From Chlamydiota bacterium (GTDB lineage: Bacteria > Auribacterota > Tritonobacteria > UBA1439), in assembly GCA_037133055.1 (NCBI GenBank), contig JBAXOY010000041.1:1-24747 (forward strand): a stretch of DNA of 24,747 bases, given 5' to 3'. The position numbers and the translations under genes are program-made. The notes beneath the pieces are model-generated. The model saw only the letters and a list, made by a program, of their open reading frames with translations. It did no database searches and was not told the origin of the DNA. Positions 2,591-16,873 of this stretch are shown here, piece after piece; within the stretch, counting starts at the first letter, position 1, and each line of letters starts with the position of its first letter.

Positions 2591-3358
2591 ATGGGGGGAT
2601 GGCTGAACAGGCGCCTGTACCGGATCTTCCTCCGCATCCGGCATCCTGAGATCATCCTCGCGCGGTGGCGCGGGCGCGGCCTCGAGCCCCTCGACGCCGT
2701 GTGCGTCGAGTGCGCGGGCCCCCCGGGTGCGGATTCGGCCCCGCCGTCGCTCATGGCCCGCGCGGTCTTTCGCCTCGCCGCGCGAAAGACGTTCCCGTAC
2801 GCTCGCGGGGTCATTTTCACCGGCCGCTCCGACCCGCTGCTCCACGGGGAACTTCGGGAGATGATCCACGCCGCCCGGTCGTACGGGAAAGAAGCGCGAG
2901 TGGTGACGGACGGCATTCTCCTCGACGAGGGGACGATCTGCGCGCTTATCGCGGCGGGGACCGATCATCTCACCGTTCGCCCCGCGGCCGCGGGAACCCC
3001 GGCCTCGGACCGGGCGGCATTCAATATCGGGGTTCTCGGCAAGGTCATGGAGGAGATGGACGTCCCCCGCCCGGCGCTTGAACTGTTGCCGCCCGGGGCG
3101 CCGGCCATCCCGGCCCGGCGCATCGATATCGCATGGGACGGGACGGTACACCCGGGCAGGGCCATGCACGGAGCGAAAACCCCGGAGCCGCTCGGAAACA
3201 TCAGGGGGCTGCCGCCCCGCGCGATCCTGTCCGCCCTTTCCTCGTCTCCGCAGGGGAGGCTTCAGCCCCCCCTCCCCGCCCCCGCCGCATCGAGAGGGAG
3301 TTCGCGACGACGGAGACCGAGCTCGCCGCCATCGCCCCCCCCGCCAGAACGGGGTTAA
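2591..3358 (+). CDS. radical SAM/SPASM-like protein lacking the canonical cysteine motifs (pseudoenzyme or decaying gene)
   Basis: [12 protein letters not shown] (GGEPLL-like), [10 protein letters not shown] (TNG.LL-like), [17 protein letters not shown]...PLGNI (SPASM/twitch-like); no CxxxCxxC; 3' end overlaps copA. Confidence 0.6.
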
Positions 3359-5489
3359 GCAGGATCCCCGTGAACGGGTAGAGGACGCCGGCGGCTATCG
3401 GTATCGCCGCGATGTTGTAGATCACGGCGGCGAAGAGGTTCTGACGTATCTTCCTCATCGCGAGGCCCCCGATCTCGAGCGCGGCGGCGACATCCCCCGG
3501 GTCGTTCCGCACGAGCACGATATCGCCCGCCTCCCTCGCCGCATCGGTCCCCGAGCCGAGCGCGATCCCGAGATCGGCTGCGGCGAGCGCGGGGGCATCG
3601 TTGACCCCGTCCCCGACCATGGCGACCTTACGCCCCGCCGCCTTGAGCCTTCCGATCTCCGCCGCCTTTTCCGCGGGGAGGACCCCGGCGAGCACGCGGC
3701 GTATCCCGACCTGCCGCGCGACGGCCCCGGCGGTCCCGATGTTGTCGCCCGTGATCATCACGACCTCCCGGCCCGCCGCCCTGAGCGCCGCCACCGCCGC
3801 CGCGGAGCGCCCCTTCACCGCGTCGGCCACGGCGATGACACCCGCCGCGGCGCGCCCCACGCAGAGCAACATCGCGGTCTTCCCCTCCCCTTCCCGCGCG
3901 GCGAGCATTTCCGCCGCCGCCGAGAAATCGATCCCCCGCTCGCGGGCAAGCGCCGCGGTCCCGAGGAGCAGCGGCTTCCCGCCGTACAACGCCTCGACCC
4001 CCTTCCCGCTCATGGATGCAAACGACTGTGGGTCGGGTACGTCGATCCCCCGCTCCCGCGCCGCGGCGACAACCGCGGCGCCGAGGGGGTGCTCCGAGCG
4101 TTTCTCCGCGATCGCGGCGAGACGCAGCACCTCCGTCGCGTCGCGCCCGCCGAGCGGCGCCACATCGGTGACGATCGGCTTCCCCACGGTGAGCGTGCCG
4201 GTCTTGTCGAAGACGACGGTATCCACCCGGGCAGCGGTCTGGAGGGCGGCGGCGCTTTTTATCAGTATCCCGCGCGAGGCCGCCATGCCGATCCCCACCA
4301 CGACCGCGGTCGGGGTGGCGAGGCCGAGCGCGCAGGGGCAGGCGACGACAAGGACCGCTACCGAGACCGCGAGGGCGAAGCTGAAGTCCTGTCCCGCGAA
4401 AAGCCAGACGGAGAAGGAGAGGATCGCGACGGAGAGGACTGCGGGAACGAAATATGCCGCGACCTTGTCCGCGAGGTCCTGCACCGGCGCCCGCGAGGCC
4501 TGAGCCTCGCGCACGAGCGCGACCACCTGCGCGAGGAAGGTGTCCTTCCCCGTCCTCGTCGCCTCGAAGGTGAACGCGCCCGCCCCGTTGATCGTGCCCC
4601 CGATCACCTCGTCCCCCCTACGCTTCGCGACGGGCATCGGCTCGCCGGTCACCATGGACTCATCACAGTACGATTCCCCGCTCCCCACGCGGCCGTCCAC
4701 GGGCACGCGCGCTCCCGGTTTCACCACGACGATATCCCCGGGCACGACCTCCTCGGCCTTTACCGTAATCTCCCTCCCCTCCCGGGCCACGAGCGCATCC
4801 GGGGGCGCAAGCTCGATCAGCGCCCGGAGGGCCGACGAGGTTCGCGACCGCGCCGTCGCCTCGAGCCATCGGCCGAGGAGGATGAACGCGACGAGCGTGC
4901 CGGCGACTTCGTAGTAAAGGTGCCCGCCGTGCGCGCGGGAAAGGCCCGGAGACGCCGCGACGCTGGAGAGGAACGCCGCGCCGGTCCCGAGGGCGACAAG
5001 GGTGTCCATGGTGGCGCGGCCGGTGCGGAAGAGCGCCGTGAGGCCCCGCCTGAACACCGAAAATCCCGCGGCGACGACCGGAGCGCAGAGGAGGAACTGG
5101 ATGAGCGCAGTGTGGCGGGAGATGAAGGCCGGAATCCGCACCCCCGCCATCGGCGCCATGGAGACCAGGAGGAGCGGGACCGCGAACGCCGCAGAGATGA
5201 AAAACCTTGCGCGGAGGGTGCGTGTCTCCCGGACACGCTCCCTGTCCTCAAGGTCCTCGATCCGGCCCGCACCCGCCCTGATCACCCCGTAGCCGGCGGC
5301 CTCGATGGCCTGTTCGAGGGCGGCGGGGGCCGTCCTGCCCGGGTCATACTCGACGAGGGCCCTTCGGGAGGCGAGGTCCACGCGCGCCGACGCGACGCCG
5401 GGGACGGCCGCGAGCGCCCCCTCCACCCTGAGCACGCAGGAGGCGCAGTGGAGGCCGGTGACCGGGATGATGACCTTGGTGAGGCTCAT
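3201..5489 (-). CDS. copA: heavy-metal translocating P1B-type ATPase, Cu(I)-exporting type
   Basis: N-terminal HMA GLHCASC, TGE, CPC, DKTGT, HP, GDGVND, YN and MxxSS transmembrane signatures. Confidence 0.95.
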
Positions 5490-5520: not shown

Positions 5521-6459
5521 TCAGTGTTCCATCGCGTGACGCACGCAGTCGCCGCACTCGAGCTGGATCGTGTAGTGGATGATCCCGAACTCCTTTTTCA
5601 GGATCTCGCCGGCGGCGTCCAGGATGGCCGTCCCCCGGCTGAGGGGCATGTCGTCGATCTCCACGTGGCCGCTCATCGAGTGGAGCCCCGAGGTGATCGA
5701 CCAGACGTGCACGTCGTGGACGCGCCGCACCCCGTCGAGGGCCGCGAGCCGCGATTCGATCTTCGAGATATCGATGTGAGCGGGAGCGGACTGAAGGAGG
5801 ATCTCGACCGATTCACGGATGAGCTGATACGCCCACACGAGAATGAGGACGCAGACGAGGACGCTCAGGATCGGGTCTATCGGGTACCACCCGGTTCGGA
5901 TGATGACGATCGCCCCGCCGACCACCACGACCGATGAAAACATATCTCCGAGCATGTGCACGAACGCGCTCCGGATATTGAGGTCGTCGTGCGCCGATGA
6001 ACGGAGGATGAGCGTCGTGAGGACGTTGACAAGGAGCCCGATGACGGCGACGAGGAGCATCCATCCCCCGGCCACCGGGACCGGGTGGATGAGACGCTTC
6101 ACCGCGAACCAGACGATGAAACCGGTGATGATGAGAAGGGTCGCCGCGTTGAAGAGGGCGGCGAGAATCTCGGCCCGGTAAAGGCCGAAGGTCCTCTTCT
6201 CCGTCGCGGGCCGTCGCGTGATAGTGATGGCAAAGTAGCTGATGATCAGGGAGAAGCCGTGCGTGAGCATGTGCCCCGCGTCGCTCACGAGCGCGAGGCT
6301 CCCCGAAAGGATCCCGGCGACGAACTCCAGCACCATCGTCACGAGCGTGATGGCGACGCAGAGGCCGAGACGGCTCTGTCCCTTCTCTCGCGCGCGGAGA
6401 AAATGCGCATGGGCATGATGCCCGTGATCGTGGTGGTTGTGGGGTGTGGCATCAGTCAT
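5521..6459 (-). CDS. cation diffusion facilitator (CzcD/ZitB-like Zn/Co/Cd exporter)
   Basis: His-rich N-terminus (HNHHDHGHHAHAH), SLALVSDAGHMLT, NIRSAFVHMLGD, VHDVHVWSIT; start reassigned to ATG 6459. Confidence 0.92.
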   Translation of the reverse strand: MTDATPHNHHDHGHHAHAHFLRAREKGQSRLGLCVAITLVTMVLEFVAGILSGSLALVSDAGHMLTHGFSLIISYFAITITRRPATEKRTFGLYRAEILAALFNAATLLIITGFIVWFAVKRLIHPVPVAGGWMLLVAVIGLLVNVLTTLILRSSAHDDLNIRSAFVHMLGDMFSSVVVVGGAIVIIRTGWYPIDPILSVLVCVLILVWAYQLIRESVEILLQSAPAHIDISKIESRLAALDGVRRVHDVHVWSITSGLHSMSGHVEIDDMPLSRGTAILDAAGEILKKEFGIIHYTIQLECGDCVRHAMEH

Positions 6460-6467
6460 GGTGAGGG

Positions 6468-6767
6468 TTACGCCGCTCCTTTCTTGCAGCAGGCCGGGCA
6501 CTCGTTCAGCGTCCTTCTGCACTTCGGGCACACCGCCCGCGAGCCGGCCGACGCCTCCCCCTCCCACCCCTTCCCGCACGACGGGCAGAGGTACTTCACG
6601 TACGTGTGCGCAGGCACCCTCCCCCGCAGGGAGGCGCGCTTCACCACCCTGACCTTGCAGGCGGGGCAGTAGTCGGGAACCCCCTTCCCCTCAGCCCCCG
6701 GCATGGCGCAGCCGAGCAGGGCGGCGAGGAGAAAGACGGACCCACACCGTATCATACGATCACTCAT
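6468..6767 (-). CDS. putative lipoprotein with four CxxC motifs (double zinc-ribbon-like)
   Basis: GGGGAGG RBS before ATG 6767; signal peptide ending LLGC; CPAC, CPSC, CPKC, CPACC. Confidence 0.7.
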   Translation of the reverse strand: MSDRMIRCGSVFLLAALLGCAMPGAEGKGVPDYCPACKVRVVKRASLRGRVPAHTYVKYLCPSCGKGWEGEASAGSRAVCPKCRRTLNECPACCKKGAA

Positions 6768-6833
6768 GCACGCCTCCCCCGGCGCACCCGAGCCCCGCCC
6801 GGTCGGCATCTCGGCCGGACAGGGCCGCGGCGC

Positions 6834-7130
6834 TCACTCCCTCGGCATCTTTTGGATATATTTCTCGGGGTCGGCCTTGAACAGGCCCTGGCAGCCGACG
6901 CAGCAGAAATAGTAGCGTGTCCCCTTGTAGTCAGAGCTGATGCTCTTGTCCGCCTTCCCCCCGAGCACCGGGCACGTATCCCCTTTCATCTCCTTCACCT
7001 CTCCCGCGGGCGTGGTGTTCCCCGCAGCGGCCGAAGCGGGTTCGGCCTTCGGGGCCGTCGCGGCCCGGGCCGCGAGCGCCGGCGCAACCGTCACGGCGAC
7101 CACGACACAAATGATGCGACATGCGTTCAT
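6834..7130 (-). CDS. exported YHS-domain protein (metal-binding)
   Basis: signal-peptide-like N-terminus, CPVLG...YKGTRYYFCCVGCQGLFKADPEKY; ATG 7130 overlaps the fprA stop (ATGA). Confidence 0.85.
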   Translation of the reverse strand: MNACRIICVVVAVTVAPALAARAATAPKAEPASAAAGNTTPAGEVKEMKGDTCPVLGGKADKSISSDYKGTRYYFCCVGCQGLFKADPEKYIQKMPRE

Positions 7131-8359
7131 CTGCTGCCCTCCTCTTTTTGTAGTGAATGCGCGAGCCTCTCCGCCACGCTCCGCCCCAGCGCCGCGCACG
7201 CGGCGAGCGTCTCATCCCCGGGCACGTAGCGTGCGCTCACGCCCTCGCCGACGAGCTCGACCTGCATGGCGCGGAGCAGCTCGTTGAGGATTTTCACGGA
7301 TTCCCCGCTCCAGCCGTAGGAGCCGAACGCAGCGCCGATGAGGCCCCGGGGCTTCAGCCCTTTCAGGTAGCAGAGCGCGTCGGCGACGGTCGGGAAGATG
7401 CCGTTGTTGAGCGTCGGCGAGCCGACGAGGAAGGCGCCTGCGTCCAGCAGTTCGGTCGCGGCGTCGCTCCGGTGGCTCGCGCCGAGCGGAAGGATCTTCA
7501 CCTCGGCCCCTCCCGCGACCACCCCCTCGCCGATCGCGCGGGCCATTCGGTGCGTGGCCCCCCACATCGTGTCGTATACGATCACCGCCTTCCGCCGGGA
7601 CTGCCGGGCGGCCCACGCCGCGTAGCGCGCCACGATCCCCGCGGGGTCCTTCCTCCAGATCGGCCCGTGGTCGGGGGCGATGATCCGGGGGGAGATCCCC
7701 AGTGCCGGAATTTTCTTCAGGAGCGCCGCGACGAGCGGCGAGAACGGCATCAGGATGTTCGCGTAGTATTTCGCCGCCTCCCGCTCGAGCAGCCCCGGCG
7801 GGAGTTCGTCGTCGAAACGCTCGCCCGAGGCGAGGTGCATCCCGAACGCGTCCTGCGAGAAGAGGAGCCCGTCGTCGGGCAGCCAGGTGAACATGCTGTC
7901 GGGCCAGTGAAGCATCCGCGTCTCGTGGAAGGAGAGGTTCGCCCCGCCGAGGTTCATCCGCTCGCCGTCCTTCACCGCGACGAGGCCGGGGCCGAGGCGG
8001 AAATGGTCCGCGAGGGCCTTCACCCCGTTGGCGGAGGCGAACACCCTGTCGGGCTTCACGGCGGCGATCGTCTCCGGAAGGCAGCCGGAGTGGTCCATCT
8101 CCGAGTGGTTCGAGATGAGGTAGTCGATCCGCCCCGGGTGGACCACGGAGGAGATGCGGGCGAACATCTCCTCCCTGAACGGCGCCTTGACCGTGTCGAC
8201 CAGGATGACCTTGTCGGCGACGATCAGGTAGGCGTTGTAGGTGGTGCCATGCGTCGTGGCGTAGCCGTGGAAATCGCGCACCGCCCAGTCCACCGCCCCG
8301 ACCCAGTACACCCGGTCGTTGACTTTAGCTGCCTTGAAAGAATTGGGTTGAATTGTCAT
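7127..8359 (-). CDS. fprA: flavodiiron protein (A-type flavoprotein, O2/NO reductase)
   Basis: GTTYNAYLI, NHSEMDHSG, HWPDSM, QDAFG, PDHG, flavodoxin YDTMWGAT and FGSYGWSG; GGAGG RBS before ATG 8359. Confidence 0.95.
   Translation of the reverse strand: MTIQPNSFKAAKVNDRVYWVGAVDWAVRDFHGYATTHGTTYNAYLIVADKVILVDTVKAPFREEMFARISSVVHPGRIDYLISNHSEMDHSGCLPETIAAVKPDRVFASANGVKALADHFRLGPGLVAVKDGERMNLGGANLSFHETRMLHWPDSMFTWLPDDGLLFSQDAFGMHLASGERFDDELPPGLLEREAAKYYANILMPFSPLVAALLKKIPALGISPRIIAPDHGPIWRKDPAGIVARYAAWAARQSRRKAVIVYDTMWGATHRMARAIGEGVVAGGAEVKILPLGASHRSDAATELLDAGAFLVGSPTLNNGIFPTVADALCYLKGLKPRGLIGAAFGSYGWSGESVKILNELLRAMQVELVGEGVSARYVPGDETLAACAALGRSVAERLAHSLQKEEGSR
8235..8318. repeat. direct repeat, copy within intact fprA (84 bp)
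   Basis: matches 9857-9925 except for a 12-bp indel, a 3-bp indel and a few substitutions. Confidence 0.9.
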
Positions 8360-9856
8360 TACCTCCGTATGCTGTTCCCTAACAAGCATCTGGCTTACTG
8401 CTCTCAGTACGCTCTATTCTGAAACGTGCATGCCGGCATTCATGCCTTCATCAACTTGGGATGACTCAACCGGTCACGTTATGATTTCGCATGTCATCAG
8501 ACAGTGGGGGTCAAAGAAATATTTTTCATTTCTCGATATCACTTTTATACCAATCGTGTGCACGCCTGATCCTATTTTATCTATCGGTATGAGCGCCTTA
8601 AACCCGCAATTCCTGTTTATACACGAATGTAATTCTTCGGAAATATCATCTCGGGGAAAACCATAGAGAGCCGGAAAGAGCCTTCCGTCAATATCGATGA
8701 CCGCCCCACCTGCACTATCACGGACACTGTCGTCGACAGCCCATCCGGAGAGGATGATTTCATCGGAATCGTATATCTGCACAACCCGCGTCTTGGAGAT
8801 GTCGAGCTCATTCAATCTGGAATAACCACAACGTGTTGTTGATCCCCATTTCTTTTTGAGCTGAGAAATATCAGCAGATGCTTTTATATCGGCTTGCGGC
8901 GAGTAGGTTAAATAATCCTGCTTCAATGGCGAGACACGTACGTTTCCGCTGTCCATAAATGGGACTATAACTGCGAGCCATCCAGTGAGATAGCGGGCAG
9001 CATAAGGAACATTGTTACGGGCAAAAAAATCATTGATGGCTTTTGGGACCTCCCCAACGCGACCAACCGTCTTTACTCTGGCATGCTTGACACACTCTCC
9101 ACTAAACTCATGACTGAAAATGACCCCTTCCCTTCTGATCGAAGCGAAGACATTCTGCAGCACATCTGACACTGACTTCCCCAAATCGACATCAAGCCAT
9201 AGGAGGCAAAGGGGTTGATTAAAACCACGCAGCGATTCTTCGTACCATCCCGGAACAAAAGAGACACAGTCAATTCGACCCAGAGTATTGATGGTATTTC
9301 TTACGGATTCCATTCCCCCCGAGCTGAATTCGTGCTTATGGTAAAAGACGCTCCCCACGTCCGGCAGTCCTTGAAAAGAATCTGCTATAATAAGCTGTCT
9401 TCCCAGAAAACTGCACGCCCAGCTCAAGCAGCAGGAAGAGAATCCCCTAAAACAGCCGCACTCGAGTATATCTCCCTGTATACCATAGCTATCCAGATAA
9501 TAGAGGTACCTGGCAATCGACATCATCTCTTCCACAGTCGTCGTCACGGCTGCTTTATCGATTTCACTCCGGCTATCAGGATTCTCCCTTTCGAAGAGAT
9601 GTCGTATGGCATGGAAAATGTTCGACATCGTCGATAAATAGAACACGTATCTTCTTATCGCCGCACTTTCATAGATGCCTTCTCGGATCATCCACGTTTC
9701 AAAACCAATGTCGATATCCCGGGAATCCCCTTTGTTGATACTGTGACTTCCGGAGCCGAGTATCGCATTGGCAAATTCGAGCGCTGCATCTTTTTTCTTC
9801 TCAACGAAATCCACAATATCACGGGGATAAATCACTTCGTCCCTCCCGGATTAGGA
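8319..9856. mobile_element. low-GC genomic islet inserted in the fprA 5' end (no integrase inside)
   Basis: bounded by direct repeats of fprA 5' sequence; hand-counted GC 20/60 (line 8521) and 29/60 (line 9361) versus 43/60 in hcp (line 10261). Confidence 0.75.
8474..9835 (-). CDS. TylF/MycF/NovP-family O-methyltransferase with a C-terminal beta-rich (Ig-like) domain
   Basis: GIQGDILECGCFRGFS, DSFQGLP, VPGWYEESL, LLWLDVDL; C-terminal LSGWAVD...RDDI...GF...GVHTI; GTG start with GGAGGG RBS. Confidence 0.8.
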   Translation of the reverse strand: MIYPRDIVDFVEKKKDAALEFANAILGSGSHSINKGDSRDIDIGFETWMIREGIYESAAIRRYVFYLSTMSNIFHAIRHLFERENPDSRSEIDKAAVTTTVEEMMSIARYLYYLDSYGIQGDILECGCFRGFSSCCLSWACSFLGRQLIIADSFQGLPDVGSVFYHKHEFSSGGMESVRNTINTLGRIDCVSFVPGWYEESLRGFNQPLCLLWLDVDLGKSVSDVLQNVFASIRREGVIFSHEFSGECVKHARVKTVGRVGEVPKAINDFFARNNVPYAARYLTGWLAVIVPFMDSGNVRVSPLKQDYLTYSPQADIKASADISQLKKKWGSTTRCGYSRLNELDISKTRVVQIYDSDEIILSGWAVDDSVRDSAGGAVIDIDGRLFPALYGFPRDDISEELHSCINRNCGFKALIPIDKIGSGVHTIGIKVISRNEKYFFDPHCLMTCEIIT

Positions 9857-9966
9857 TTGTAGGTGGTGCCGCGCGTCGCGTAGCCGTGGAAATCGCGCAC
9901 CGCCCCGACCCAGTACACCCGGTCGGTCACCCGCACCGCGCTGAAAACACCCTGTGGGTCCGTCAT
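9832..9966 (-). pseudogene. displaced 5' remnant of fprA (44-aa ORF)
   Basis: my translation MTDPQGVFSAVRVTDRVYWVGAVRDFHGYATRGTTYNPNPGGTK* aligns with the FprA N-terminus; absent from the ORF track. Confidence 0.85.
9857..9925. repeat. direct repeat, copy within the fprA remnant (69 bp)
   Basis: partner of 8235-8318. Confidence 0.9.
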
Positions 9967-9982
9967 GCCGTCCGTAAGTATA

Positions 9983-11647
9983 TCACGATTCGAGCGCCGC
10001 TTTCAGGTCCCGCGCCGGGTCGTCGGATATCGGCATGATGTTGAACTTCTCCACCAGCACCTTCAGTATCCCCGGCGTCACGAACGCCGGGAGCGACGGC
10101 CCGAGGCGCATATCCCTGATTCCCAGGTACAGCAGCGAGAGGAGGATCGCCACCGCCTTCTGCTCGTACCAAGAGAGGACGAAGGTGAGCGGCAGGTCGT
10201 TGACGCCGCAGGTGAAGGCGCCGGCGAGCGCCTGGGCAACCCGGACGGCCGAGTAGGCGTCGTTGCACTGCCCCATGTCGAGCAGCCTCGGGACGCCCCC
10301 GATCTTGCCCGCGTCGAGCGTGTTGAAGCGGTACTTGCCGCAGGCGAGCGTGAGGATGACGCAGTCCTTCGGCACGAGCTCCGCGAACCGCGTGTAGTAG
10401 TTCCGGCCCGGCTTCGCGCCGTCGCAGCCGCCGATGAGGAAGAAGCGTTTGATCGCGCCGGACTTCACCGCGTTGATCACCGTCTCGGCCACGCCCAGCA
10501 CGGCCTCGTGCCCGAAGCCGACCGTGATCTTCTTCGCCGGCGCCTCCTCGAACCCCGCCAGTTCCTTCGCCTTCGCGATCACCGCGGAGAAGTCCTTGGG
10601 GCGGCCGTCCCTCCCGTCGGGGATGTGCGCCGCCCCCGGCCACGCGACGAGCCCCGTGGTGAAGATCCGATCGCGGTAGGAGACCGCCGGCCTCTGGATG
10701 CAGTTCGTGGTCATCAGCACCGCCGCGGGCGCCGCCGCGAACTCCTTCTGCTGGTTCTGCCAGGCGGTCCCGTAGTTCCCGGCGAGGTGCCCGCGCTTCT
10801 TCAGTTTCGGGTAGCTGTGCGCCGGGAGCATCTCCCCGTGCGTGTAGACGTTGACGTCGGTCCCCTCCGTCTGCTCCAGCAGTTGCTCGAGGTCCAGGAG
10901 GTCGTGGCCGCTCACGATGATCGCGGGGCCCTTTCTCGTCCCGAGGAACACGGCCGTGGGGACCGGCACGCCGAACCGCGCGCGGTGCGCCTGGGAGAGG
11001 AGCTCCATCGTCGCGATGGTGGTCTTCCCGCACTCCATGACGAGCCCGACAAGCTCGTCGGCGCCAACCGTCCCCTCCGCGAGCGCGGCGAGCGCCTTGT
11101 GGATGCCGTCGAAGACGGCGTCAGAGTCGCTGCCGAGGATGTGGGCGTGGTCGGCGTAGGCAGACACGCCTTTGAGGCCGAAGAGGAGCAGGTGCTCGAG
11201 CGAGCGGAGATCCGCGTTCTCGGGGCGGTCGGACGGGAGGCCGACCCTCGCCGCCTCGGCGAGGAGGTTGGCGCGCGTCTTCCCCGGCTCCCACGCCGCC
11301 GCCGCGGGGATCTCCCGGGGGACCTGCGCGCTCGCCTTCGCGGCAAGCGCGCGCGCGGCGCCCTTTACCCGCGCGGCCTCCCGGAGCAGGCCCTCGATCC
11401 TCGCGGGGTCGAAATCCACGTTGGTGATCGTGCTGAAGAGGGCACGGACGGTGAATACCCCTATCGCCCTGTCGCGCGCCCCCTTCCCGGCGGCGAGGTG
11501 CGCGTACCACCCGATCCCCTTCGCCGCGTGGACGAGCAGGTCCTGGAGAGCCGCGGTCTCCGGATCCTTTCCGCAGACGCCCTGGACGGTGCACCCCGTC
11601 CCCTTCGCCGTCTGTTCACACTGGTAGCAGAACATTCCCTGTGCCAT
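9983..11647 (-). CDS. hcp: hybrid cluster protein (hydroxylamine reductase / NO detoxification)
   Basis: MFCYQCEQT...C...GVCGK, SGHDL, THGEMLPAH, TTNC, GGCDG, LACGKYRF, GQCNDAYS, SWYEQKA; AAGGAGG RBS before ATG 11647. Confidence 0.97.
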   Translation of the reverse strand: MAQGMFCYQCEQTAKGTGCTVQGVCGKDPETAALQDLLVHAAKGIGWYAHLAAGKGARDRAIGVFTVRALFSTITNVDFDPARIEGLLREAARVKGAARALAAKASAQVPREIPAAAAWEPGKTRANLLAEAARVGLPSDRPENADLRSLEHLLLFGLKGVSAYADHAHILGSDSDAVFDGIHKALAALAEGTVGADELVGLVMECGKTTIATMELLSQAHRARFGVPVPTAVFLGTRKGPAIIVSGHDLLDLEQLLEQTEGTDVNVYTHGEMLPAHSYPKLKKRGHLAGNYGTAWQNQQKEFAAAPAAVLMTTNCIQRPAVSYRDRIFTTGLVAWPGAAHIPDGRDGRPKDFSAVIAKAKELAGFEEAPAKKITVGFGHEAVLGVAETVINAVKSGAIKRFFLIGGCDGAKPGRNYYTRFAELVPKDCVILTLACGKYRFNTLDAGKIGGVPRLLDMGQCNDAYSAVRVAQALAGAFTCGVNDLPLTFVLSWYEQKAVAILLSLLYLGIRDMRLGPSLPAFVTPGILKVLVEKFNIMPISDDPARDLKAALES

Positions 11648-11661
11648 CGTGTTCCTCCTTG

Positions 11662-11706
11662 TCAAACGGCTTGAACCGTTTGAACTGTTCCAACCGCTTG
11701 AACCTT
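11662..11706. repeat. degenerate 9-bp tandem repeat x5
   Basis: TCAAACGGC TTGAACCGT TTGAACTGT TCCAACCGC TTGAACCTT; includes the dyad TCAAACGG-N6-CCGTTTGA. Confidence 0.75.
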
Positions 11707-12013
11707 ATTCTGGTTCAGGTACACCCCCTGAAGATGCCGCATTGTCTCGTGGAACCTCCCGTGCGTCCCCGCCCAGCCCCTTTTTCGCACGGAGGTAGCG
11801 CGCGTACAACTCCTCCCCCACGCACTCCCTGGCCGCCGCGCACCACTCGATGCACGCGGGGGGCATCTCCCGGCTCACGGGGCTCCCGCACGACGGGCAC
11901 CGGACTTCCCCCTCGTCCGGCCATATCTCGACCTTCCTGCCGCACCCGCAGGGGACCTCGTCGGGAAACGACGCCCTGATCCTCTCCGCCCCCGGGCACT
12001 TGAACCCGCTCAT
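11705..12013 (-). CDS. small Cys-rich zinc-ribbon/Fe-S-type protein
   Basis: MSGFKCPG...CGCGRKVEIWPDE...CPSCG...CIEWCAAARECVG; ATG 12013 overlaps the upstream stop (ATGA); it is the 3' part of track ORF 11705..12811. Confidence 0.8.
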   Translation of the reverse strand: MSGFKCPGAERIRASFPDEVPCGCGRKVEIWPDEGEVRCPSCGSPVSREMPPACIEWCAAARECVGEELYARYLRAKKGLGGDAREVPRDNAASSGGVPEPE

Positions 12014-12846
12014 TTCCTCTCTCCCCGAAGACTTATTTCGACTTCGTGAAAAGGAATATTCGCGCCGGATGCTTTCACGGCCTCGCGCACGAGCTGCACG
12101 AGCCCGAAGCAGCACGGCACCTCCATGCGCGCGACCGTCACCGACCTGATCCCGCTCCGCCTGAATATCTCCTCGAACTTCTCCCGGTACGCGTCCGTGT
12201 CGTCGAGCTTCGGGCAGCCCACCAGGAGCGCCTTCCCCGCGAGCAGCTCGTCGTGGAAGCCCGCGAAGGCGAACGGCACGCAGTCGGCCGCGACGAGAAG
12301 ATCGGCCCCTTTCAGGAACGGCGCCGCGGGCGGCACGAGGTGTATCTGGACCGGCCACTGCCCGAGCCGGGACTGCGCCGCAGGCCCTTTGGGGCGGGCC
12401 GCCTCCGGGCCCTTCCCGAAATCCACCACCCGGGCTCCCGGGCACCCGCATGGTTCGGGCCTTTTGGACCCGCCGGCGGACGGGGCTTTTTCGTTCCCGG
12501 GGATATCGATCTTGTTTTCTCTCAGATATGCCAGCGCCTCCCCGAGATACCCGCCCCGGCCGTGATCCCGAAGGTGCGCGAGGTGCGCGCGTATCACGTT
12601 CTCCCCGCCGCGCGCGATGTTCTCCATCACCCTTCCCTCGTCGTACTCCTCCGCCTCGCGCTCCTCGAACGACAGCGCCCCCTCGGGGCAGTGCCCGATG
12701 CAGGCGCCGAGGCCGTCGCAGAAGAGATCGCTCACGACGCGCGCCTTCCCGTCGATGACCCGGAGCGCACCCTCGGGGCAGTTCGGGATGCAGAGCCCGC
12801 AGCCGTTGCACTTCGCCTCGTCAATTTGTATGATGCTTCTTTTCAT
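12010..12846 (-). CDS. 4Fe-4S dicluster ferredoxin-domain protein of the type commonly found beside hcp
   Basis: CNGCGLCIPNCP and CDGLGACIGHCP; CGCPG, QWPVQ, AADC, GCPKLD, MEVPCC. Confidence 0.88.
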   Translation of the reverse strand: MKRSIIQIDEAKCNGCGLCIPNCPEGALRVIDGKARVVSDLFCDGLGACIGHCPEGALSFEEREAEEYDEGRVMENIARGGENVIRAHLAHLRDHGRGGYLGEALAYLRENKIDIPGNEKAPSAGGSKRPEPCGCPGARVVDFGKGPEAARPKGPAAQSRLGQWPVQIHLVPPAAPFLKGADLLVAADCVPFAFAGFHDELLAGKALLVGCPKLDDTDAYREKFEEIFRRSGIRSVTVARMEVPCCFGLVQLVREAVKASGANIPFHEVEISLRGERK

Positions 12847-13270
12847 CGCCGTTGTCTCCCGCGTAGAGGTCCGCCAGCGCGGACAGCTTCGTTCCCGAAA
12901 GGTACCCCACGAGCTGCGCGTTCACTTTTTTCAAAAGCCCTCCGAGGATGCACCGCGGCGCCCCGCACCCCGGCGCGTCGAAGAGGCACCCGCTCGCGCA
13001 GTGGCGCCCCTCGATCGTCTCGTAGACGTCGAGCAGCGTGATCTTCCCCGGGCTCTTCGATAGGATGAATCCGCCGCGCGGCCCCCGTATGGAATTCACC
13101 AGTCCGGCCTTCGCGAGGCGCTGGAGGACCTTCGAGAGATGCGCCCCGGACGCCTTGAGTCGGGCTGCCGCCCTTCCCGTGGAAAGGGGCTTTCGCGACT
13201 CCGCCGCCATGAGGACCATGACGTGCATCGCGAGCGCGGCGGCTTCCGAGATCCTTATCATCTTCGCCAT
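12821..13270 (-). CDS. Rrf2-family transcriptional regulator with C-terminal cysteines
   Basis: HLSKVLQRLAKAGLVNSIRGPRGGF, ITLLDVYETIEG, C..GCLF...C...C. Confidence 0.93.
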   Translation of the reverse strand: MAKMIRISEAAALAMHVMVLMAAESRKPLSTGRAAARLKASGAHLSKVLQRLAKAGLVNSIRGPRGGFILSKSPGKITLLDVYETIEGRHCASGCLFDAPGCGAPRCILGGLLKKVNAQLVGYLSGTKLSALADLYAGDNGDEKKHHTN

Positions 13271-13290
13271 GCGGGGCGCTCCTTTTCCAT

Positions 13291-13316
13291 TAAACAGGTA
13301 CCACTATACCTGATTA
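13291..13316. promoter_or_regulatory. palindromic operator, probable Rrf2 autoregulatory site
   Basis: TAAACAGGTA-ccacta-TACCTGATTA, 9 of 10 dyad positions match, overlapping the -10. Confidence 0.7.
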
Positions 13317-13330
13317 TGTTTTCCTGTCAA
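13303..13330 (-). promoter_or_regulatory. sigma70-type promoter of the Rrf2-hcp unit
   Basis: minus strand TTGACA (13330-13325), 16-bp spacer, TATAGT (13308-13303); AAAGGAG RBS. Confidence 0.7.
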
Positions 13331-13391
13331 CATATTTTTTCGCGGCCTCGGGGTTGGGGGCACATCGTTACTCTTCTGTGACGGAGCGCGT

Positions 13392-14639
13392 CTAATGAGC
13401 GGCGGCGTTCGTGCCGGCGAGGTATCCGGAGGTGAAGGCGAACTGGAGGTTGAAGCCGCCGCAGTCGCCGTTGATGTCGAGCATCTCCCCCGCGAAGTAG
13501 AGCCCCTTGACGAGTCTCGACTCCATCGTCCTTCCCTCGACCTCCGCCGTGCGCACCCCGCCAGAGGTAACCTGCGCGTCCCTGAAGCCGCGCGTCGCGG
13601 TGATCTTCAGCTCGAGGCCGGTCAGGATGTCCACGATGCGGGAGCGGTCCGTCCGCGTCACCTTGTCGGAGGGCATCTCCTCGTCCATCCCGAGCACGTT
13701 CCTGAAAAGCACCTGGGGCAGCTTCTTCGGGAGGATCCCCATCAAACTGTTGCCGAGGGAGCGTTTCGGATTGTTCTTCCAGAGGGAGAGGATCTTCCCC
13801 TCCACCTCTTTGCGTGGCAGCCCGGGAAAGAAGTTGATCCTGAGCGCCGTCTCCATCCCCGGTAGCCCGCGCGTGACGAAGCTGCTCACGTGGAGCACCG
13901 CGGGGCCGGAGACGCCGTAGTGCGTGAAGAGGAGTTCATCCGTCGCGGACGCGACGGGCTTCCCTCCCTGAGTCGCCTTCACCCCCGCGCGCGCCTTCAC
14001 TCCCTGGAGGTCGAAGAGCGATTTGTCCCCGATCTCGAGCGCGACGAGCGCGGGTGACGGCGGGACGATCGTGTGACCGAAAGCCTTTGCGAACGAGTAG
14101 CCGTCCTCGCACGCGCCGAGCTGCGGATAGGCGGGCCCGCCCGTCGCGACTACCAGCGCGCGGGAGGTGAAGGTCTTGCCGCCGGAGCAGCGGGCGGAAA
14201 ATTCACCGCCCTTTCCCCGGGCAACCCCCTCGACCCGGACACCGGGCACGACCTCCACGCCGCACCGCCCGACCTCCTCTTTCAGGACATCCACGATCGT
14301 GGATGCCTGGTCGGTGACGGGGAAGATGCAGCCCTGATCCTCTTCCTTGAACTCGACCCCGCGCTCCCCGAACCATGCGAGCAGGTCGTCGTTCGTGAAC
14401 CGCGGCAGGACATTGTGGAGGAAGCGCGTGTCCTCGCCGTGGTAGCGCTCGAGGGCGATGCGGCGGTTGCTGATGTTGCACCGGCCGTTACCGGTCTTCC
14501 CGAGCTTACGTCCGAGCATGTGGTTGTGCTCGATAAGGCAGACACGGCGGGTTTTCCCGTCATGCCGGGCGGCGGTGACGGCGGTGAAGATCCCGGCGGG
14601 GCCGCCGCCGATGACGAGGATGTCGGCATGGTCGGGCAT
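13392..14639 (-). CDS. HI0933/YhiN/BaiN-family flavoprotein (NAD(P)/FAD-dependent oxidoreductase)
   Basis: VIGGGPAG, GRKL..TGNGRCN, ATGG..YP..G, LLFTHYGVSGP, AQVTSGGV, GLYFAGE.LD..G.CGGFNLQ.AF.SG; start reassigned to 14639. Confidence 0.93.
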   Translation of the reverse strand: MPDHADILVIGGGPAGIFTAVTAARHDGKTRRVCLIEHNHMLGRKLGKTGNGRCNISNRRIALERYHGEDTRFLHNVLPRFTNDDLLAWFGERGVEFKEEDQGCIFPVTDQASTIVDVLKEEVGRCGVEVVPGVRVEGVARGKGGEFSARCSGGKTFTSRALVVATGGPAYPQLGACEDGYSFAKAFGHTIVPPSPALVALEIGDKSLFDLQGVKARAGVKATQGGKPVASATDELLFTHYGVSGPAVLHVSSFVTRGLPGMETALRINFFPGLPRKEVEGKILSLWKNNPKRSLGNSLMGILPKKLPQVLFRNVLGMDEEMPSDKVTRTDRSRIVDILTGLELKITATRGFRDAQVTSGGVRTAEVEGRTMESRLVKGLYFAGEMLDINGDCGGFNLQFAFTSGYLAGTNAAAH

Positions 14640-14711: not shown

Positions 14712-14739
14712 CCCAGGGCACACTTAAGTGTGCCCTGGG
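14712..14739. repeat. perfect 28-bp palindrome, copy 1
   Basis: CCCAGGGCACACTTAAGTGTGCCCTGGG. Confidence 0.95.
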
Positions 14740-16847: not shown

Positions 16848-16873
16848 ACAGGGCACACTTAAGTGTGCCCTGT
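16848..16873. repeat. perfect 26-bp palindrome, copy 2 (contains the nth stop codon)
   Basis: ACAGGGCACACTTAAGTGTGCCCTGT; 24-bp core identical to copy 1. Confidence 0.95.

Follow-up and report, generated by a model that had tools for sequence, protein, structure and literature searches.

The stretch of DNA analysed here, 24,747 nucleotides of a Chlamydiota bacterium contig (JBAXOY010000041.1, positions 1 to 24,747; the window), carries an insertion in the 5′ end of fprA, which follows the hybrid-cluster protein gene hcp and encodes a flavodiiron protein that detoxifies oxygen or nitric oxide. An insert with a single methyltransferase gene lies between two copies of a segment of fprA that is 84 bp long when intact, and the working fprA begins with foreign codons. 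We consider it probable that this arrangement arose as an insertion with long target duplication, by homology-anchored recombination of incoming chromosomal DNA. Seven further gene ends in this genome are laid out alike, which makes the fprA case likely an ordinary footprint of DNA uptake and not a new fprA-targeting element. The host is an uncultured lake bacterium whose genome (G000) is 92% complete and comprises 2.99 Mb at a GC content of 0.644; G002 and G004 to G007 denote relatives, and the prefixes C, L and X denote contigs, loci and sequencing runs.

The duplicated fprA start and its insert

On the minus strand, which encodes every feature of the site, the order is hcp, a 44-codon open reading frame (ORF), a 453-codon gene, a 114-bp spacer and the 410-codon fprA. 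The upstream host gene, hcp (9983..11644), is well defined (Pfam Prismane, E 1e-160; NCBIfam match above cut-off; third-position GC, GC3, 0.94). The initial annotation had described a direct repeat of the fprA 5′ coding segment at 8235-8318 and 9857-9925, and its coordinates are exact: the two copies, each corresponding to codons 15-42, align over 84 columns at 79.8% identity (E 3e-15) and share exact identity blocks of 28, 28 and 14 bp. In the genome, the region has no significant match besides its repeat partner, making the 84-bp duplication unique there. The downstream copy (8235..8318) is intact, has host-type codons and includes a 28-bp exact core at 8291-8318. As a prefix of fprA, the upstream copy (9857..9925) is imperfect: 12 nt are missing in frame, a loss of four codons from WVGAVDWAV that falls between two copies of GGGCGGTG, and a further 3 nt are missing, also in frame. 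Otherwise the copies differ by two substitutions, both in one codon.

The upstream copy is preceded by native fprA codons 1-14 (9926..9966), with a host-like GC content of 0.67 over codons 2-14, and together they form most of the 44-residue orphan ORF (9832..9966), which is fused to a foreign tail and whose stop overlaps the GTG start of the cargo gene. The first foreign DNA, at 9836..9856, comprises the last codons of the fused ORF and the GGAGG of the cargo (9842-9846), and is likely to represent the tail of the donor's upstream gene. There follow the cargo, a TylF-family O-methyltransferase gene of 453 codons (8474..9835; Pfam PF05711; GC3 0.49), the foreign spacer (8360..8473), with a replacement ribosome-binding site, again GGAGG, at 8362-8366, and the foreign replacement of fprA codons 1-14 (8319..8359). 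The latter opens the working, chimeric fprA (7127..8359), which encodes 410 residues with metallo-beta-lactamase and flavodoxin domains. The insert between the repeats measures 1,538 bp, with a GC content of 0.467 over 8331-9856 against 0.644 for the genome, and its one gene is that of the TylF protein; the low-GC insert of about 1.5 kb with a single gene was thus correctly recognised at the outset, as were the two N-termini, the GGAGG sites and the break of the orphan at GTTYN. The junction windows contained no inverted repeat of at least 7 bp; a tRNA was found nowhere in the window, nor was an Rfam match in 6000-14000.

Which of the two starts is native can be judged from the protein cluster of the window's FprA. 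It has three members, among them P0143, a full-length FprA that matches the orphan at 13 of its first 14 residues and the working FprA at 374 of 386 residues over positions 15-400 (97%). The working FprA differs from the native start at 9 of 14 residues, while codons 15-36 of the two copies are identical apart from the deletions. Its replacement codons 2-14 have a GC content of 0.385, a value as low in only 2 of 509 host-like gene starts. Even so, replacement residues 8-14 score 19.5 against an FprA profile, close to the median of 19.8 for 119 FprA homologues, a score reached by none of 308,610 7-mers from low-GC DNA. By these measures, the replacement is a genuine but foreign FprA N-terminus of 14 codons, in keeping with the initial annotation, and the comparisons support the orphan as the native start of fprA. 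Since codons 15-42 are host-type in both copies, the boundary between foreign and host sequence falls at codon 14/15, where the conserved DRVYWVG motif begins. The second joint is abrupt, at native codon 42, onto low-GC DNA. The replacement start is uninformative as to the donor: it shares 23 of 42 nt with two family members and 17 of 42 with a genome of the same genus. Among named relatives, those closest in FprA carry the label Candidatus Aureabacteria/Auribacterota, a group to which the host is thus likely to belong. At the other end of the gene, P0143 is not matched by the last 10 fprA codons (window 7127-7160), which extend across the ribosome-binding region and into the beginning of the YHS gene; the 3′ end of fprA is therefore altered too.

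In each of the six family genomes that gave a match to fprA, the gene follows hcp uninterrupted, as one whole copy without cargo. The empty allele sought by the initial annotation is therefore present in relatives, and insertion into the 5′ end of fprA is borne out; P0143, a full-length protein with the native start, adds evidence of the empty form at the protein level. Synteny with G002 indicates a net duplication without loss of host DNA. The single fprA at the site in these six genomes also bears on a possibility that the initial annotation had raised against itself, a tandem duplication of fprA in which one paralogue decayed and an unrelated gene landed between the two. The orphan does show decay, in the form of its two deletions. 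It nevertheless ends sharply at codon 42 on low-GC DNA, and duplication alone cannot give a pair in which 9 of the first 14 residues differ while codons 15-36 match; we regard this history as highly implausible.

Misassembly of two strains or organisms, a further concern of the initial annotation, could be suspected of a genome assembled from metagenomes, the more so as the contigs of run X1 break at the repeat. We compared the locus with the contigs of eight runs from six coded studies, of 24 listed. All eight covered DNA of the insert. The fprA-side junction was bridged by single contigs, differing at no more than one position, in X1, X2, X3, X4 and X6; for the hcp-side junction, this was so in X1, X2, X3, X6 and X7, and one X2 contig spanned the whole stretch with zero differences. 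X1 and X2 may be the source of the assembled DNA, and the studies may be one campaign, so the bridging shows reproducible assembly and not wide distribution. With each junction bridged in five runs by separately assembled contigs, misassembly is next to inconceivable.

Recurrence of the layout and fprA as a proposed target

The host genome was scanned for low-GC islets and then for two-copy repeats at gene ends. The latter scan gave 24 raw hits, ten of which were viewed in detail, with seven accepted, including fprA, and three rejected on inspection; the remaining fourteen were rejected from their sequence lines as simple repeats, hairpin elements or paralogous domains. One further accepted case, from the low-GC scan, brings the number in the genome to eight. 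An orphan end, cargo and an intact end are thus found in the same layout at seven gene ends besides that of fprA, with repeats of 48-122 bp and between one and a few cargo genes each. Two lie at gene 5′ ends. At C96 (1048-1169 / 3292-3413; L207), the start of nadB and its upstream region are duplicated over 122 bp at 98% identity around one low-GC gene for a 641-residue membrane protein; one end of this insert contains two imperfect 59-bp copies. At C76 (10222-12262) the repeat is 70 bp. The other five are at gene 3′ ends: C6 (1464-2376; 63 bp), C11 (35737-36606; 91 bp, the orphan containing a stop), C12 (8756-11926; 100 bp), C29 (7452-8937; 77 bp) and C86 (6710-8488; 48 bp, in a radical-SAM gene).

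The cargoes at C96 and C86 are long membrane proteins without a Pfam match, and from their motifs we take the remaining cargoes to comprise a toxin-antitoxin pair, a methyltransferase-like protein and further membrane proteins resembling glycosyltransferases; C12 presumably also holds transposase-like ORFs. Further low-GC DNA borders C11, C29 and C76, as if insertions had been stacked. The C96 site is empty in G002, G004 and G006, and the C6 site in G007. At C29, the insert stops mid-gene, in a 5′ fragment of the gene that directly follows in G002, and alignment to G002 suggests 7 nt common to this fragment and the orphan where they join. Such a mid-gene end appears to be the mark of a chromosomal fragment and not of a defined element. 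By eye, no shared motif was seen at the joints of the sister sites, and no similarity was found between inserts or insert ends.

Two cases were accepted in 1.93 Mb from four relatives, against eight in the 2.99 Mb of the host, and none in 78 other loci totalling 1.16 Mb, from which two loci with an Auribacterota label were excluded, a comparison of densities biased by a gene-end filter that favours GC-rich genomes. One is an upstream-region duplication in G004. The other is at the start of hcp in G005 (L033; 10044-10110 / 11482-11548), where a decayed 67-bp copy (90% identity) precedes a 429-codon gene and the intact start; the product of this gene has no NCBIfam match and is, we assume, P-loop ATPase-like. 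The scans also brought up arrangements of other kinds. Contig C3 of G005 (3549-3662 / 5306-5419; L257) has two tandem lipoprotein-like genes, both apparently intact, with a common 114-bp 5′ region (98%). At C70 (1100-8360) and C28 (42-1074), tRNA-type repeats flank low-GC islets, with an integrase remnant at C70; these are conventional tRNA islands. At C4 (38400-39500; L209), a single low-GC methyltransferase gene adjoins host gene ends that also look low-GC; a 15-bp repeat there was judged to be due to chance, and we saw no convincing duplication.

If fprA were a specific integration or gene-capture site, as the initial annotation proposed, similar footprints would be expected in other genomes. 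We searched 79 genomes of the phylum (the host and 78 others) with a 60-residue fprA-start query, and 251 and 62 genomes of two other groups with a 42-residue query, which had matches in at least 150 and in 33 genomes, respectively. These searches are a sample and may miss fragments under about 25 codons. Within the phylum, the short orphan was found only in the host genome, and among the matches listed no second duplicated fprA start occurred in the 391 other genomes (78 + 251 + 62). Nor was one present at any of 80 genome loci. Seven cases with short frames were cut out and attributed to one frameshift (L331), one in-frame stop (L332), four contig ends and one truncation at residue 170 (L336), none with a duplicated start. 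An fprA truncated at residue 82 (L157, 5413-5660) also lacks a duplicate, and a weak second fprA match in L167 was rejected as it sits in a different upstream gene.

Among viral contigs, a single fprA query found no relative, a motif for the deleted form had 0 matches, and an fprA profile yielded four loci, three of them antisense chance matches. In the fourth, L203 (4697-8151), a large serine-recombinase module precedes an fprA start of normal form where the viral contig ends; no repeat was seen there. Phage and plasmid matches to the fprA start were, from the tables, ordinary or unannotated, at <60% identity. No att-like fprA fragment was thus found in viral contigs, phages or plasmids. We found no linked recombinase on this contig and no serine recombinase in the host genome; six tyrosine-recombinase matches lie elsewhere in it. 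In literature searches at the level of listings, we found no description of fprA as an integration target. These results do not establish fprA as a new integration target.

A relic of a site-specific element of the integrative and conjugative element (ICE), integrative and mobilizable element (IME) or prophage type, which targeted the 5′ end of fprA and has since been reduced or is mobilised in trans, must be weighed against this background. Exact in-frame restoration of fprA with a genuine foreign N-terminus would suit it, as would the perfect 28-bp block, which begins at the foreign/host boundary, and the six tyrosine-recombinase matches elsewhere in the genome. There is also a precedent: the element SXT supplies a new 5′ end to prfC. 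SXT/R391 ICEs insert in the 5′ end of this protein-coding gene, which stays functional (PMC5812530), but they have their own integrase, a short fixed core and a recurrent target, none of which was found at fprA. The contig has no recombinase match, the junction windows lack inverted repeats, host-type sequence extends 56 bp past the core on both copies, and neither duplicated starts nor att-like fragments turned up in the searches above. Moreover, eight different gene ends would each require their own lost integrase. We consider such a relic unlikely; that fprA is a dedicated integration or capture site for a cassette mobilised in trans, as the initial annotation had in mind, is not supported, given the missing recombinase, the lack of recurrence at fprA, cargo relatives that never lie beside fprA (0 of 85 loci) and a layout shared by many unrelated gene ends.

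A probable homology-anchored origin of the duplication

Four features, namely the variable repeat lengths, the many unrelated targets, the lack of a recombinase and a fragment with its end inside a gene, point to chromosomal DNA that entered the cell and was processed by host recombination. In the proposed sequence of events, a cross-over in the conserved DRVYWVG motif would graft foreign upstream DNA, comprising the cargo and the N-terminus, onto host-type fprA, and a non-homologous joint 28 codons further on would leave the native start upstream. The 84-bp duplication would exist because the non-homologous joint fell downstream of the cross-over. Completion could take the form of a second transfer from a same-species donor that already carried the graft, of a single cross-over of a re-circularised fragment, or of pairing with two sister chromatids. 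The outcome is identical for all of these, so that the locus does not tell them, or one step from two, apart. Events of this kind may be retained at gene ends because insertions elsewhere would disrupt the gene.

These steps have precedents. Insertion with long target duplication was defined for restriction-modification cargo (Furuta, Abe and Kobayashi 2010; PMC2853133) as an insert of <20 kb with a duplication of >30 bp and no mobile genes, mostly in competent species. The fprA locus resembles this class in its insert of 1,538 bp, its duplication of 84 bp, unique in the genome, the lack of mobile-element genes in or beside the insert, and the empty site in six of six family genomes with fprA; some of the repeats in PMC2853133 also overlap gene ends. 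It differs in that the cargo is a TylF O-methyltransferase and not a restriction-modification system, and in that the site is a 5′ end with a grafted, homologous foreign N-terminus. The fprA case is therefore a variant of a known, mechanistically open class, which it behaves like without being a restriction-modification member. New here are a 5′-end case with a foreign N-terminal graft and the eight cases in one genome, although the supplements of PMC2853133 may include 5′-end examples.

In E. coli, 56 of 60 clones obtained with DNA homologous at a single end carried a duplication, of 109-950 bp in the 14 sequenced, and these duplications were ascribed to a single cross-over of a re-circularised molecule, whereas classical homology-facilitated illegitimate recombination (HFIR) gives deletions (PMC3240628). 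Interchromatid integration also yields duplications (PMC3784515), and anchored illegitimate recombination has been invoked for orphan gene ends (PMC5361080). Like HFIR and the arrays of orphan modules (PMC3240628, PMC5361080), the fprA site combines a homologous anchor in a conserved gene, here at codon 14/15, with one non-homologous joint, abrupt at codon 42, and a displaced orphan end. Illegitimate joints of HFIR carry micro-homology of 3-10 bp; the sister site C29 would fit with its suggested 7 shared nt. Unlike HFIR, which usually deletes host DNA of similar size, it shows a net duplication, and unlike the orphan arrays, described in PMC5361080 for toxin/immunity loci, it concerns the start of a housekeeping gene.

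Homology-anchored insertion is not without difficulties. The ComEC, DprA and ComEA-like domains encoded in the genome count in its favour but are weak evidence, as these competence families occur in 10-11 of 14 control genomes and are widespread and no more than permissive. No donor locus was found: relatives of the cargo stand beside fprA, or any other window gene, at 0 of 85 loci, and the donor arrangement is accordingly hypothetical. An exact, gene-restoring foreign N-terminus is also typical of site-specific elements. Two deletions against two substitutions in 84 bp make an odd pattern of decay that the model does not explain. The sister cases were picked by eye from the 24 raw hits, plus one from the other scan, and four of the seven (C86, C11, C12 and C76) come without a demonstrated empty site. 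Finally, because classical HFIR gives deletion and not duplication (PMC3240628), an extra step is needed.

The repeat might instead still be in use. In a mobile islet without a recombinase of its own, of the microcin H47 type, a host recombinase would move small circles of gene end plus cargo via the identity blocks. The H47 island (PMC3191183) likewise lacks its own recombinase and has extensive imperfect direct repeats with several identity blocks, comparable to the 28, 28 and 14 bp at fprA. It is, however, 13 kb long, experimentally mobile without homologous recombination and inserted at one widespread att site. Unconventional circularizable structures (PMC7843796) share the absence of a recombinase gene and the flanking direct repeats, but these repeats are >100 times att length, and the circles were shown by PCR; the fprA repeat is 84 bp.

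A possible trace of excision comes from one run. Only in X1 do contigs break at 8289-8318 and at 9898-9927; the two positions are distinct 30-mers on either side of the first 28-bp block, and these are the points at which a 31-mer graph would branch for an empty junction. A single X1 record can be placed twice, and in one depth bin the excess over the listed contigs corresponds to about 27 bases at a depth of about 2 (16.9 observed, 16.3 computed). Collapse of the first 28-bp block restores an in-frame fprA with the native start. The break points thus hint at a rare empty junction, and many such islets share the genome. Against this, the X1 record itself is unlisted, and one chimeric fragment or a close relative's allele would produce an identical picture. 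The excised or circular junction for which the initial annotation advised looking was not listed, either as a joint skipping the insert or as a circular joint, among the contigs of the eight runs, and contigs drop rare variants. The orphans are moreover decaying (deletions at fprA, a stop at C11, substitutions at hcp of G005), which suggests one-way events. We hold an H47-type islet to be doubtful. A broader version is likewise improbable as a whole: the lineage would run integrase-free cassettes whose circles of gene end and one cargo gene, often for a surface-modifying methyl- or glycosyltransferase, move in and out of many housekeeping gene ends, bring along the gene terminus of their former host to repair the next one, and still excise on rare occasions, as the X1 break points hint.

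Under homology-anchored insertion, the eight cases show the gain of single genes inside operons without mobile-element enzymes and without loss of the struck gene, and gene termini swapped between species during such gain. Being of different ages, and some of them with empty sites in relatives, they make the duplication route testable outside restriction-modification genes.

FprA, the cargo and other features of the window

The working FprA has Pfam beta-lactamase and flavodoxin domains and matches PDB 1ycf at E 5.5e-124, and the diiron motifs, which we take to be the diiron ligands, were located in it. As the replaced residues precede the region alignable to flavodiiron proteins of solved structure, which begins at residue 12, the N-terminal graft is likely to be tolerated. 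Judged from its 410-residue product, with both domains and the motifs, fprA was restored after insertion.

The cargo protein matches TylF (PF05711) with 46.8 bits against a cut-off of 23 (E 3e-12), has the conserved acidic motifs and an extra C-terminal domain, and starts with MIYP, as do its relatives. It was not found in any of seven family genomes. ORFs adjoining the nine closest relatives listed are, by eye, mostly glycosyltransferase- or polysaccharide-like, a setting that suggests a role in surface-glycan methylation, and we predict that the cargo would methylate a surface glycan. Searches of the foreign spacer (8360-8473) gave no consensus promoter or terminator, with counts at chance level; the cargo is therefore likely to be read through from the rrf2-hcp operon. 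The overlap between the stop of the orphan ORF and the start of the cargo gene would assist such read-through.

Two further features of the window were noted. A perfect 24-bp palindrome is present in two copies, at 14714-14737 and 16849-16872, with near-identical copies on contig C175, and is likely a dispersed repeat. At 1904-1989, in a low-GC intergenic stretch, there is a 33-bp inverted repeat (91%) with a 20-bp loop.

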